From assembly GCA_043745355.1 (NCBI GenBank), contig JAYTSY010000027.1:1-52077 (forward strand): a stretch of 52,077 nt of DNA. Reading direction: 5' to 3'. Shown in pieces: positions 2,679-12,237 of the stretch (its first letter is position 1; each line of letters begins with the position of its first letter). The translations under genes and the position numbers were made by a program. A model generated the notes under the pieces. That model worked only from the letters and a program-made list of their open reading frames with translations, was not told the DNA's origin and did not search any database. Origin of the DNA: a bacterium. Lineage in GTDB: Bacteria > Patescibacteriota > Minisyncoccia > Phycocordibacterales > CAIZLB01.

Positions 2679-3395
2679 TTACTGTCGCATAGTCGAGCAC
2701 AAGCGCACCCAGTTCTTTTTCACTTCGAGTTCGAGCTTGCCTGCCGCAATGTCTGCAGCGACCGCAGGATCATCCTGTTCGTATTCCGGATATGCTTCAC
2801 GAATGGAAGCGATGACCGGCAAACCCTTGTAGGTCGTGTCGTAAAGCGGAGAGCGATTGAGCGCTCCGACGAGGAGCACAATGTTGGCTCCAGTCACGGC
2901 GATCTCGGCCAAGGTCGTGTCAGTATTTTGGAAGTTGTTGAACACATCTTCCGCGATGGCGACACGTTCACCTTGTTCGAATTCAAACTGCGAAAGGTCC
3001 CAGCAGTATTCCTGTTTCCTGCCCACTTCCGTCAGCTTCGGCTTCTTGTCCGCATAGACGAAGCGTTTATTTGCAAGACGCGCGAGCGACCGACCGAAGG
3101 TTCGTCCACCCTGCGGGATGCCGCAGACGGTATCGAATTTGTCGAGCAAATCCATCTTTGCGAGCTTCAGCAAAGCTACTTCAGCGAATGCTTCAACTGC
3201 CCATGGGTGTTCTTCGATGCGCCGGAAGTTGAAGTAAATGTCTCCGACGAGGTTTCGTCCTTGGCTGTCTTTTCCCGCATAGGCGACCAATGGTCCCTTG
3301 CGTTCAAGTCCAACTTTCGGACACACATACACTGCACGGCAACGCTTTCCGAGTTCCAAGAGGTTTTCTCCTAGACGTGGAATGATTGGTTTCAT
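2679..3395 (-). CDS. Type I phosphoribosyltransferase, orotate PRTase (PyrE)-like, divergent
   Basis: DIYFNFR, GIPQGG, VYADKK and RVAIAEDV (PRPP-binding motif start) follow the PyrE order. Confidence 0.75.
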   Translation of the reverse strand: MKPIIPRLGENLLELGKRCRAVYVCPKVGLERKGPLVAYAGKDSQGRNLVGDIYFNFRRIEEHPWAVEAFAEVALLKLAKMDLLDKFDTVCGIPQGGRTFGRSLARLANKRFVYADKKPKLTEVGRKQEYCWDLSQFEFEQGERVAIAEDVFNNFQNTDTTLAEIAVTGANIVLLVGALNRSPLYDTTYKGLPVIASIREAYPEYEQDDPAVAADIAAGKLELEVKKNWVRLCSTMRQ

Positions 3396-6490: not shown

Positions 6491-6518
6491 TTGACGATAT
6501 GTACACATTGTGTATACT
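6491..6518 (+). promoter_or_regulatory. Sigma70 promoter of the TA operon with a palindromic operator
   Basis: TTGACG-16 bp-TATACT; the palindrome TACACA-T-TGTGTA (6502-6514) overlaps the spacer and -10. Confidence 0.75.
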
Positions 6519-6524
6519 ATAAAC

Positions 6525-6779
6525 ATGGATACACTACATATAAGGATTGATAAGCATACAAAGACCAAGGCGGGTAAAACTCTAGCTGATCTTGGAATGG
6601 ATATGTCTACGGCGGTTAAAGTTTTTCTCCATCAGGTAATTGTTAATGAGGGGCTCCCTTTTACTCCAAGTAAAAATATGGCCGCACTCAAAGCTCGGTT
6701 AGATCAGACAACCAATGAAGCCGTTAAGGGGGGGGGTAAGAGCTATAAAAATGCCGGTGAAATGCACGCTCGTATATAA
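6525..6779 (+). CDS. dinJ: RelB/DinJ family antitoxin
   Basis: RHH-type N-terminus LHIRID and LGMDMSTAVKVFL...GLPF; directly upstream of the toxin. Confidence 0.88.
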   Translation: MDTLHIRIDKHTKTKAGKTLADLGMDMSTAVKVFLHQVIVNEGLPFTPSKNMAALKARLDQTTNEAVKGGGKSYKNAGEMHARI

Positions 6780-6781
6780 CT

Positions 6782-7066
6782 ATGTATAGGATCGTTCCCT
6801 CTAAAGACTATATAAAATCCTACAGAAAACTTACGTGTTTAGGTCAATTCTCACCAAAAGTTAAGAAGGATCTCGAACATACTATCGATACTTTGGCGGC
6901 TGGAGAAAAACTTCCTCCTGAATATAAAGACCACCAACTAAGTGGCGAGCTTAAACATTACAGGGATTGCCACATCAAAGGTGATATATTATTGATTTAT
7001 CAGATTAGGAATAAAGAGTTACTTTTAGTACTAGCTGATCTTGGAACACATTCGGGGCTGTTTTGA
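6782..7066 (+). CDS. yafQ: YafQ family mRNA interferase toxin
   Basis: LPPEYKDHQLSG, RDCHIKGDILLIY and GTHSGLF, with the catalytic His/Asp pattern intact. Confidence 0.92.
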   Translation: MYRIVPSKDYIKSYRKLTCLGQFSPKVKKDLEHTIDTLAAGEKLPPEYKDHQLSGELKHYRDCHIKGDILLIYQIRNKELLLVLADLGTHSGLF

Positions 7067-7194
7067 GGGAGGAAGTTAAATTATTTTGAAATGAATGCCC
7101 TCCCAGAATGTTAATTTTTTGTTAACAGACAAGGGTATATGGATGAAATTAGTGAAAAAATTCAATATTTGAGCAATCAGATTTTTGTTATAGA

Positions 7195-7605
7195 ATGAGA
7201 ACTATGAATTATTTAAAAAACACCTTTATTTCAATAGGGATCTTTGCCGTCTGCTTTGCTAATTTATTTAACGCAAATAAATTAAGTTTAGCAATATCTT
7301 TATTGATTTCACTATTAGCTGCGGTAATACCGTTCATATTCTCTGCTGTGTTGGAAAATAAGAAGAAAGGACTCTCACCTGAGGAGTTAATTGGATTTAA
7401 CAATTATAGAAAACAAAACTTTTTGTATTCTTATTTATCAGTAGCAATTGTGAGTATTTTGTTTCTTGCCTTTAAAGTAGGTCTTCATAACCTCTCACCT
7501 ATGTCCAGCATCATTCCAGGTCTTTTTGTTGCAATACCCATAAGTATTGTAATAAATGCAATCTGTACACTGATAAAAGTACCCAATAATTCTAGCCATT
7601 CTTAG
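7195..7605 (+). CDS. Hypothetical membrane protein (4 TM)
   Basis: Hydrophobic segments, AT-rich; start may be ATG 7204. Confidence 0.65.
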   Translation: MRTMNYLKNTFISIGIFAVCFANLFNANKLSLAISLLISLLAAVIPFIFSAVLENKKKGLSPEELIGFNNYRKQNFLYSYLSVAIVSILFLAFKVGLHNLSPMSSIIPGLFVAIPISIVINAICTLIKVPNNSSHS

Positions 7606-7679
7606 ATCTTTTGTTAACTTGTTAACAAACTGTGTGGCCACAGGTATCGCAAAATTCAAAACAGTTTGAATTTTGCTCT

Positions 7680-7701
7680 TTTGTGCCCTCAGTAGGAATC
7701 G
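7680..7701 (-). repeat. 22-bp exact duplicate of the tRNA-Arg 3' end (att-like)
   Basis: TTTGTGCCCTCAGTAGGAATCG occurs at 7680-7701 and 7851-7872. Confidence 0.9.
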
Positions 7702-7817
7702 GTCACGGATAATTTTTATTGCATAAAAATTTCCTCGACCCCGCCTCACTCGGCAAGATTCGCTACGCTCATAACTTGCCTTCGCTCCGGCTTTCGATTC
7801 CTGCAGAAATCAGCAAA

Positions 7818-7850
7818 TGAAAAAGAGGAGCGAAAAGCTCCTCTTTTTCA
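7818..7850. terminator. Perfect 14-bp hairpin, bidirectional terminator after tRNA-Arg
   Basis: TGAAAAAGAGGAGC-gaaaa-GCTCCTCTTTTTCA. Confidence 0.85.
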
Positions 7851-7854
7851 TTTG

Positions 7855-7926
7855 TGCCCTCAGTAGGAATCGAACCTACATTTTAACTTCCGCAAAGTTA
7901 TGTCCTATCCATTGAACGATGAGGGC
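7855..7926 (-). tRNA. tRNA-Arg(GCG), CCA not encoded
   Basis: Cloverleaf GCCCTCA/TGAGGGC, anticodon arm TAACT-TTGCGGA-AGTTA, T arm GTAGG-TTCGATT-CCTAC; 72 nt. Confidence 0.95.
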
Positions 7927-7995
7927 GTCTCGCCAAATTATCACAAAAATGCCTAAATTACTAGACGCTTCCCGCTCTTGGTTTATACTATATAC

Positions 7996-8217
7996 ATGGC
8001 ATTGAACAATATCTCACTCATCGGCACAGGCATCTTCGGTGTAGCAATGCTCGCCTACTGGATAGGTGCGTTTTTTATTCTGTATCATCTCATCAGGTTT
8101 GGTGTCGGATCAAGTCCGAAAAAGATGGCGGTATTTTTTCTCAGCGGTTCATTATTCCTTTCATTGATTGCGGTGCTTTTATTCGGGCAAATTGATTTCA
8201 CCGTAATCCATTTTTAA
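7996..8217 (+). CDS. Small 2-TM membrane protein
   Basis: Two hydrophobic helices; TATACT 6 nt before ATG 7996. Confidence 0.7.
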   Translation: MALNNISLIGTGIFGVAMLAYWIGAFFILYHLIRFGVGSSPKKMAVFFLSGSLFLSLIAVLLFGQIDFTVIHF

Positions 8218-12161: not shown

Positions 12162-12237
12162 GCGCCCGTAGCTCAGTCGGTAGAGCGGCTCCCTTTTAAG
12201 GAGATGGTCGTAGGTTCGATTCCTACCGGGCGCACCA
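12162..12237 (+). tRNA. tRNA-Lys(TTT), CCA encoded
   Basis: GCGCCCG/CGGGCGC acceptor, anticodon loop CTTTTAA, T arm GTAGG-TTCGATT-CCTAC, ACCA end; 76 nt. Confidence 0.97.

Follow-up and report, generated by a model that had tools for sequence, protein, structure and literature searches.

Small folded modules without genes form a widespread family at the ends of tRNA genes in Saccharibacteria

The 171-bp block located behind the tRNA-Arg(GCG) gene in a 52,077-nucleotide stretch of bacterial DNA (contig JAYTSY010000027.1 of the Patescibacteriota assembly GCA_043745355.1; the whole stretch is hereafter referred to as the window) belongs to a widespread family of small, folded modules that carry no genes and are found at the ends of tRNA genes. 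The family is order-wide in Saccharibacteria and patchy elsewhere in Patescibacteria. At a rough probability of 0.45, the reading preferred here is that these are non-autonomous insertion modules, structured as a single strand, for the segment of tRNA genes that runs from the T-loop to the 3' end, with their turnover mediated by recombination at the tRNA-derived repeats. A first-pass annotation of the window had described a structured mini-element next to a duplicated tRNA 3' end, and all the features named in it, i.e. the tRNA-Arg, the hairpins, an antisense box, the duplicated 3' end, the palindromes and an inverted repeat, are present. The genome of the window (G000, its contigs numbered C) is available as a 0.66-Mb assembly that is 85% complete.

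Read on the minus strand, the block follows the order tRNA-Arg(GCG), a first hairpin (H1), a decayed antisense copy of the tRNA tail (S'), a conserved core, a sense copy of the tail (S2) and a second hairpin (H2), with the positions as listed in Table 1. The direct repeat comprises 25 nucleotides (nt) with one mismatch, of which 22 nt are exact (7680-7701 = 7851-7872), at a spacing of 171, and S2 agrees with the tRNA at 17/17 over positions 57-73. This repeat of the tRNA-Arg tail is not a chance match. The best match to the 17-nt tail within the 450 nt downstream of each tRNA reaches 16-17/17 for the three of the genome's 34 tRNAs that carry a module and 8-12/17 for the other 31. The hairpin H1, annotated earlier as 14 bp, is a perfect hairpin of 18 bp, and the box described as antisense to the T-arm is correctly placed and extends further, since the antisense copy, now decayed, takes in the whole tRNA 3' end and occupies 7793-7813. 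This copy matches the antisense of the tRNA 3' end at 13/19 positions, or 15/19 if G-U pairs are counted as pairable; its stub GCAGGAATCGAA (7793-7804) is antisense to T54-C65 and its distal part has decayed. S' forms the 5' strand of a closing helix, P1, for which the first 10 nt of S2 supply the 3' strand; the minimum free energy (MFE) fold pairs S' with 7682-7700, and the inverted repeat that closes the core consists of AGGAATCG (7694-7701) and CGATTCCT (7795-7802). The identity of the T-arm with that of the tRNA-Lys at 12162 was borne out over 17 nt (GTAGGTTCGATTCCTAC).

The core has a selected single-stranded structure, marked both by covariation and by a strand asymmetry of the wobble pairs. 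In an alignment of 21 copies made with MAFFT (A1), RNAalifold found compensatory changes in 19 of the 25 predicted pairs. With the closing helix P1 added, 90.7% of the cells in A1 are paired, as against 72% in shuffles and 32-48% with slid partners, and double changes occur in 25/33 pairs, a value reached in 0/500 shuffles. A covariance model, R1, was built from the core alignments; among 99 distinct copies aligned to it, 94.5% of the cells are paired and 32 of the 33 pairs show double changes. The G·T pairs (204, one such pair being invariant) far outnumber the A·C pairs (38), and therefore the fold exists on the tRNA-sense strand only, as RNA or as single-stranded DNA (ssDNA). The window copy taken alone folds into the family consensus (-42.6 kcal/mol, z = -2.7), and this single-sequence fold includes an extended P1 of 19 positions. 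The hairpins P3 and P4 are often capped by GCGNAGC mini-hairpins. A protein-coding core was ruled out by the stem covariation and the tolerated G·T wobble. Searches of Rfam 15 returned nothing for the core at the gathering thresholds, at which only the tRNA passes, and at E <= 10 the core has only spurious sub-threshold matches to microRNA and small RNA models.

Related cores behind other tRNAs, in the genome of the window and in its relatives, were first obtained with BLAST and nhmmer, so that the search for the core next to other tRNAs, suggested by the first-pass annotation, led to a large family. R1, which describes the cores referred to as class A, finds four copies in the genome of the window (Table 1). 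Of the 151 genomes of the order, 122 contain a match (109 of 131 genera), and a genome of ~0.8 Mb has between 0 and 24 copies; the other 29 genomes are without a match to the core model, and copy number within one genus ranges from 0 to at least 8. In a sample of 301 genomes from the phylum, matches were found in 5 genomes of the same order, 3 of the same class and 10 others. A tRNA or transfer-messenger RNA (tmRNA) gene lies upstream on the same strand in 83 of the 103 collected copies, within 95 nt in 73 of these, and the copies without one are second units of arrays or orphans. The hosts include at least 20 tRNA species plus tmRNA. Full-text literature searches found no description of such elements. 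The orphan in the genome of the window has a truncated tRNA 3' fragment and a hairpin in front of it and keeps P1 by means of two G-U pairs; its sense tail is similar to a tRNA-Ser for which no gene was found in the assembly. The tRNA-Ser(GCT) module is immediately followed by an ARAGORN call for a tRNA-Ser with the odd-looking anticodon ACT (C6:14331-14418), and the same pair is present in G003 (locus L035).

The modules are about 100-170 bp long. Their full order is tRNA, H1 (usually), a', P0, GU, t', core, t, a and often a second terminator, where a' is antisense to tRNA positions 66-73 and t' to 54-65, and t and a are the sense copies of 56-65 and 66-73/74. P0 is a conserved hairpin (GAGCAGGCAAACUGCUUUGCCUGC, with a covarying stem) that splits a' from t' in many copies; P0, like a second core class (class B) described below, was recognised by eye. 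The antisense t' and the sense T-loop form P1, which closes the fold P2-P4. Among the 66 tRNA-adjacent copies, 35 have a sense copy matching at 16-17/17 (in 6 of these a' matches as well, in 29 it does not), the sense tail of another 5 matches in part (13-15/17), 14 carry a long antisense copy only, which often forms a perfect palindrome with the tRNA tail through H1, and 12 keep neither tail. In 6-8 copies the a':a pairing coexists with an intact sense copy. The flanks are specific to the tRNA: the stub fits the T-stem of its own tRNA at 3.98 of 5 positions, as compared with 2.57 for permuted tRNAs (maximum 2.92 in 2000 permutations). The left edge of the repeat is C56 in all 35 intact copies. 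On the right, 25 of them have the edge 16-21 nt from G57 (mode at position 74), and the remaining 10, in which the repeat sometimes spans the whole terminator, have it at 24-68 nt. The sharp outer edge at the tRNA end fits equally well a target duplication of ~18 bp and a selected replacement tail borne by the element.

The window copy has an intact sense tail and a decayed a' and is without P0; its sense tail is fresh and its antisense copy old. The stub GCAGG fits the T-stem CCTGC found in the tRNA-Arg(GCG) of relatives better than the CCTAC of its own genome, and the sense tail equals the tRNA-Arg of its own genome at 22/22, so that the two flanks are of different history. Either of the two tails in the window may be the native one. 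Two observations bear on this: the tRNA together with H1 is 83% identical to the tRNA-Arg trailer of G035, a site that is itself occupied by a module, and H2 doubles as a terminator of the convergent gene.

Comparison of sites across genomes revealed gain, loss, amplification and mosaicism of the modules. The tRNA-Arg(GCG) site is empty in two genomes of the same genus as the window (G002 and G003) and likewise in several other relatives, which include G006, G009, G016, G021, G026, G030, G033 and G054. At the same tRNA, G035, G011, G029 and G014 carry class B, which has the same stub-GAAAGG junction and sense tail as class A and different hairpins, and decayed class B remnants are present in G036 and G024. 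In class B the stub-GAAA(A)GG junction leads into a long hairpin that terminates with GGGAAACC, after which come a small hairpin of the CGTAG type and the sense tail. Class B follows class A in tandem at L073 and L099, and tandem arrays of identical units follow tRNA-Gly (L048, with 3 units of 148 nt), tRNA-Lys and tRNA-Leu (L048, L049, L050). Truncated 3' remnants are common, and nested remnants were also found. Core identity is 0.57 between different tRNAs of one genome and 0.485 for the same tRNA in different genomes, with a background of 0.48; vertical lineages for each tRNA were thus rejected, as cores at the same tRNA are no more alike than background. Variants of P3 and P4 assort independently, which points to recombination between copies: the window P3 is 94-97% identical to those of the tRNA-Ser copy in its own genome and a tRNA-Gln copy in G001, and its P4 differs from that of the copies sharing its P3. 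The first-pass annotation had allowed that the block might be just the scar of a deleted island, should the core be unique and lack both covariation and empty sites. The core belongs to a family, it covaries strongly and the orthologous sites in relatives are empty, and a mere scar is therefore unlikely.

If the modules are insertion elements, the T-loop-to-3'-end segment of a tRNA gene would be both target and address. Insertion would always place the junction of core and T-loop at 55/56 and leave two copies of the tRNA tail, and the tRNA would therefore stay intact. The folded ssDNA, or a co-transcribed RNA, would present P1 as a mimic of the target, and the fold would be what selection preserves. 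Existing copies would be lost, tandem-amplified and patched through recombination between the direct and inverted repeats of tRNA origin and between cores, and the catalyst for new insertions would be supplied in trans. Spread from cell to cell would plausibly proceed by natural transformation and homologous recombination, because Saccharibacteria are naturally competent (PMC10633639).

Several results weigh against this proposal. None of the models tried simply explains how both flanks come to be rewritten for a new tRNA. Near-identical whole cores at different tRNAs are confined to one pair at 95% (two tRNA-Ser in G127) and the tandem arrays, so that recent bursts of transposition are not evident. 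Exact-match scans of metagenomes gave no empty or filled alleles at the strain level, the empty sites seen being those between species, and no excised form or transcript was observed. As discussed below, six candidate enzyme families do not track the modules. Finally, compensated, intact folds persist at apparently orthologous sites (tmRNA and tRNA-Ser(GCT)) where the sense copy is decaying, which fits selection on a host RNA.

The main rival, somewhat unlikely in our judgement, is accordingly that the modules are host-beneficial RNAs of tRNA operons, each a structured core set inside a tRNA-like minihelix. The pairing a':a would mimic the acceptor stem and t':t the T-stem, P0 would replace the D and anticodon arms, and RNase P and RNase Z would cut the RNA from tRNA precursors; the tRNA ends would have been duplicated locally and kept by selection, with the variation in copies reflecting genome reduction. 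The restriction of the fold to the transcribed tRNA strand agrees with such a role, as do the full a'-P0-t'-core-t-a architecture in at least 6-8 of the 66 copies, the motifs GAAAGCCGGAG, GAGGCGGGGUCG and GUGACC, which are single-stranded and invariant across more than 100 genera, the folds that stay intact at tmRNA sites while the sense tails decay, and the lack of correlation between modules and any mobilising enzyme. Some copies moreover lie inside tRNA clusters with spacers of 1-8 nt, which leave no room for a promoter or terminator, and must be co-transcribed. A host function sits less easily with the uneven occurrence described above (0-24 copies within the order, 0 to at least 8 within one genus, 29 of 151 genomes without a core match and three of 34 tRNAs served here), or with the truncated, nested and tandem-amplified copies and the unrelated second core class that occupies the same tRNA with the same flanks. 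A strong terminator separates the tRNA from the module in many copies, and a' also covers the complement of N73 and the trailer, which is a trait of a DNA palindrome rather than of a tRNA-like design.

A mobilising enzyme was sought among known Pfam families by comparing 16 genomes with 4-24 copies and 16 without class A. Six candidate families (reverse transcriptase, TnpB, the IS110 and Y1 transposases, and the serine and tyrosine recombinases) do not track the presence of modules. Reverse transcriptase (PF00078) shows no correlation, being absent from G069, G123 and G086, which have 19-24 copies, and present in several copy-free genomes; an origin similar to that of short interspersed nuclear elements or retrons, or by reverse transcription in general, was rejected since the enzyme does not follow the copies. 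TnpB/Cas12 (PF07282) exceeds the cut-off in a single one of the 32 genomes, or in three if E <= 0.001 is accepted, and was not found in the genome of the window; a TnpB omega-RNA or a Cas12 guide RNA was rejected on this ground. The DEDD recombinase of IS110 (PF01548), which does match in control genomes, has no match over the cut-off in the 32 genomes, and an IS110 bridge RNA was rejected accordingly. The Y1 HUH transposase (PF01797) occurs in 9/16 genomes with modules and 8/16 without and is absent from G123 (23 copies); elements of the repetitive extragenic palindrome (REP) or REPIN type, served by REP-associated tyrosine transposases (RAYT), were rejected as this family is uncorrelated with the modules. 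The Y2 transposase (PF04986, IS91-type, GTTC target) gave no match in the 32 genomes, with the control genomes equally silent. Miniature inverted-repeat transposable elements (MITEs) were also rejected, because the inverted repeats are tRNA-specific, the duplication spans 16-68 nt and no transposase family correlates. The proteins encoded upstream of two copies in G005, considered as possible partners, are unrelated to each other. The genome of the window contains three reverse transcriptases of ~350-400 amino acids (aa) (C9:19837-20448, C11:39187-39798, C33:9927-10538) and one Y1 HUH transposase-like gene (C4:10085-10429). G076, a 0.7-Mb genome without class A modules, has 13 Y1_Tnp (HUH) genes of ~220 aa, an unusual expansion.

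The recombinases deserve separate consideration, as the first-pass annotation had invoked the logic of integrase attachment (att) sites. Its placing of the block among non-autonomous tRNA-linked elements or structured RNAs was in the right neighbourhood; the att-site logic itself was not supported, as no integrase stands behind it and recombinases do not follow module presence. A single tyrosine recombinase gene (PF00589) is found in nearly all genomes, whether these have 0 or 23 copies, for which reason a dedicated tyrosine integrase was rejected, and serine recombinases (PF00239) are present in 11/16 genomes with modules and 9/16 without, and in none of the contigs of the window's genome. 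The modules could still be remnants or satellites of recombinase islands, with the repeats as attL and attR, the core as a conserved arm and the recombinase acting in trans or deleted, in the manner of cis-mobilisable elements (CIMEs) or of integron attC sites and possibly served by the single host tyrosine recombinase or by the common large serine recombinases. We regard this as quite improbable. It is in keeping with the att-like architecture at tRNAs (a direct repeat bounded on the inside at a fixed point of the T-loop and on the outside by the end of the tRNA), the tandem and mixed-class arrays, the occurrence of a tyrosine recombinase in every genome, the large serine recombinase genes that are convergent to tRNAs in relatives and a 6-kb islet between module-bearing repeats in G005. 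Against it, no recombinase lies in or near the window copy (no recombinase open reading frame (ORF) within 2.5 kb), recombinase content is independent of the presence or number of modules, and a mere scar would not retain a fold with 32 of 33 pairs covarying. The family is also absent from GenBank phages, and a strict pattern matched 1 of 2.9 million IMG/VR contigs, which carries host-like genes; on these two grounds a phage origin was rejected.

That contig (L104, IMGVR_UViG_3300033463_005745) ends in a module array (2843-3310) at a tRNA-Ser-like site, and since the neighbouring genes (epimerase, cytidine deaminase, GDSL lipase) are host-like, it is probably host flank or a misclassified contig. 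The islet in G005 (L041, G005:C1:177776-185838) contains a SET-domain gene and two EamA transporters and is bracketed (695-1109 and 6700-7657) by 370-bp repeats that are 94% identical and have a module in each; further repeats of 53 nt at this locus correspond to a tRNA-Trp-like 3' end plus trailer. Genes for large serine recombinases (450-600 aa) that converge on tRNA-Ala or tRNA-His are found at L105/L111 (G086), L107/L113 (G154) and L110/L112 (G045), and their orientation indicates that a separate class of islands uses tRNA ends in the order. The loci have neither a core match nor a sense duplicate, and these enzymes, common as they are beside tRNAs, are uncorrelated with the modules. At L112 the interval from the tRNA to the recombinase gene includes a stub of 9 nt, GGGATTTGA, that is antisense to the T-loop.

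A device acting at the RNA level, the second idea of the first-pass annotation, appears very improbable. The module would in that case be a ribozyme-like or intron-like RNA, with the antisense stub as an internal guide for the T-loop, that cleaves, swaps or sequesters the 3' half of the tRNA, or else a reverse-transcribed chimera of core and tRNA fragment that has become fixed in DNA. The sense copy is indeed an exact fragment from the T-loop to the mature 3' end, the stub can pair with either copy, and in copies with a long antisense tail the tRNA tail, H1 and S' make a long perfect hairpin. However, the self-cleaving ribozymes and introns in Rfam yield no match even at E <= 10, the highest-copy genomes G069, G123 and G086 lack reverse transcriptase, the upstream tRNA is complete and needs no splicing, and the direct repeats sometimes reach far into trailers that look untranscribed.

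Among known systems, the closest in target are the tRNA/tmRNA integrative elements, i.e. prophages, integrative and conjugative elements and islands, together with CIMEs. The modules share with them the 3' part of tRNA and tmRNA genes as target, the T-loop junction, the tail repeat that preserves the gene, tandem accretion and presence/absence polymorphism. They differ in that an integrase is lacking in cis and a matching one is lacking from the genomes, the cargo is only a ~90-nt fold, an additional antisense copy of the target is present and a single 0.8-Mb genome can have up to 24 copies, spread over many tRNAs. Some casposon families (with the Cas1 casposase) likewise insert at tRNA 3' ends with target duplications of 14-15 bp, comparable in their rough constancy to those of the modules (mode 18 nt); the modules, unlike casposons, are only ~150 bp long and have no casposase or polymerase cargo, and some of their duplications reach 24-68 nt. 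MITEs and REP/REPIN elements (RAYT, Y1 HUH) are also small, non-coding, hairpin-rich, multi-copy and gene-less, whereas each module has terminal repeats of its own, taken from the target tRNA, the modules lie strictly behind tRNAs in one orientation, the copies within a genome are diverged and Y1 genes do not track them. The IS110 bridge RNA and the IS200/605 TnpB omega-RNA similarly combine a structured scaffold with ~10-20 nt that match or complement the target, but IS110 and TnpB are essentially absent from these genomes, no protein gene is adjacent, and the sense and antisense segments of a module pair with each other. Full-length modules can form a helix like the acceptor stem and T-stem of the neighbouring tRNA, and in this they resemble tRNA-like non-coding RNAs (YrlA or Y-RNA-like, mascRNA-type), from which they are set apart by the lack of an Rfam match, the replacement of the T-loop by a helix and a 90-nt insert, and the fact that each copy mimics a different tRNA.

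Integron attC sites and the attP(+) site of CTX phage, an integrative mobile element exploiting Xer (IMEX) that uses the host XerCD, share with the modules a conservation of structure instead of sequence, confined to one strand, and a unit without a recombinase gene. In these sites, as in the modules, inverted target-like segments ~100 nt apart fold into a duplex that mimics the target, and arrays are formed. The modules differ in that the target is the tRNA T-loop and not attI or dif, and no IntI-like gene was noticed at the heads of module arrays; ssDNA may be their active form. It is conceivable, though we consider it unlikely, that the modules represent a new class of base-pair-addressed elements without protein genes, in which a host-supplied or other enzyme inserts the folded strand, and sometimes gene islets, at a tRNA. 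The core classes and P0 would then form a scaffold for a rewritable bipartite address of ~20 nt, antisense and sense, specifying the T-loop-to-3'-end segment of whichever tRNA or tmRNA gene is targeted, and the whole might amount to an integron-like or IMEX-like capture system anchored on the tRNA genes of ultra-small bacteria.

The window copy itself has no cargo gene that could be found. It is flanked on one side by a 136-aa ORFan and a RelB/YafQ pair and on the other by a small membrane protein gene (Table 1). No match to the ORFan was found in those loci of relatives that were compared. Thirteen relatives have a small membrane-protein gene downstream of, and co-oriented with, tRNA-Arg(GCG), and the whole tRNA-Arg block in the window is inverted relative to this conserved neighbour (window 7854-8217). 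H1 is terminator-like in both directions in the terminator scan; H2 is followed by a T-run on the plus strand and can therefore terminate the convergent 136-aa gene (7195-7605), and a further terminator-like match was found at 7630-7643. The two short palindromes at the outer border are not conserved in other module copies.

Table 1. Features of the tRNA-Arg(GCG) block and its surroundings (positions in the window unless a contig or locus is given), with the module copies in the same genome and the class B copies at tRNA-Arg(GCG) of relatives.
Feature	Position	Strand	Basis or remark
tRNA-Arg(GCG), complete	7854-7926	-	ARAGORN; Rfam RF00005, 62.9 bits
S1, direct-repeat copy 1 (C56 to A73 plus CAAA)	7851-7872	-	inside/at end of tRNA-Arg
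H1, 18-bp perfect hairpin, 5-nt loop	7814-7831 / 7837-7854	-	inverted repeat; terminator scan
S', antisense copy of tRNA 3' end	7793-7813	-	inverted repeats; MFE fold
Conserved core, ~90 nt	7702-7792	-	alignments A1, A2; model R1, 116.3 bits, E = 1e-33
Core parts, 5' to 3'			AAAG; P2 (GCC/GGC); 2-bp helix with tandem G-A internal loop; P3; GG; P4
P3, hairpin GGCAAG...CTTGCC, loop UAUGAGCGUAGCGAAU	7775-7780 / 7752-7757	-	inside core
P4, long hairpin GGUCG...bulged A...UGACC	inside core	-	alignment; model R1
S2, exact 22-nt sense copy, C56 to 3 nt past C74	7680-7701	-	direct repeat
H2, 12-bp perfect hairpin directly after S2	7649-7676		inverted repeat; plus-strand terminator scan
Two short palindromes, TTGTTAAC..GTTAACAA and CTGTGGCCACACAG	7610-7643		sequence; outer border of block
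RelB/YafQ toxin-antitoxin pair	6510-6779, 6782-7066		Pfam naming only
136-aa membrane-like ORFan	7195-7605		convergent to module; adjoins its outer end
Small membrane-protein gene	7996-8217	+	diverges from tRNA-Arg 5' end, 70 nt away
Module copy C27			tRNA-Arg(GCG); window copy
Module copy C6			tRNA-Ser(GCT)
Module copy C22			tRNA-Glu(CTC)
Module copy C9 (L046)	C9:39916-40035		orphan behind rpmB and tRNA 3' fragment
Class B copy	L005 1293-1500
Class B copy	L007 1575-1790
Class B copy	L012 300-527	-
Class B copy	L020	-

The significance of the family depends on which of these readings applies. If the modules are mobile, a DNA could target the tRNA T-loop, the most conserved sequence of the genome, without encoding any enzyme, and the address would apparently be written in base pairs, possibly a compact principle of targeting; this would bear on gene exchange and gene capture in epibionts that are reduced and competent, Saccharibacteria among them. 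As host RNAs, the modules would rank among the most abundant uncatalogued RNA families of Patescibacteria and represent a new, tRNA-scaffolded kind. On either reading, a covariance model is now available for annotation, and it accounts for many of the 'tRNA fragments', contig breaks and structured intergenic regions in the genomes of the Candidate Phyla Radiation.

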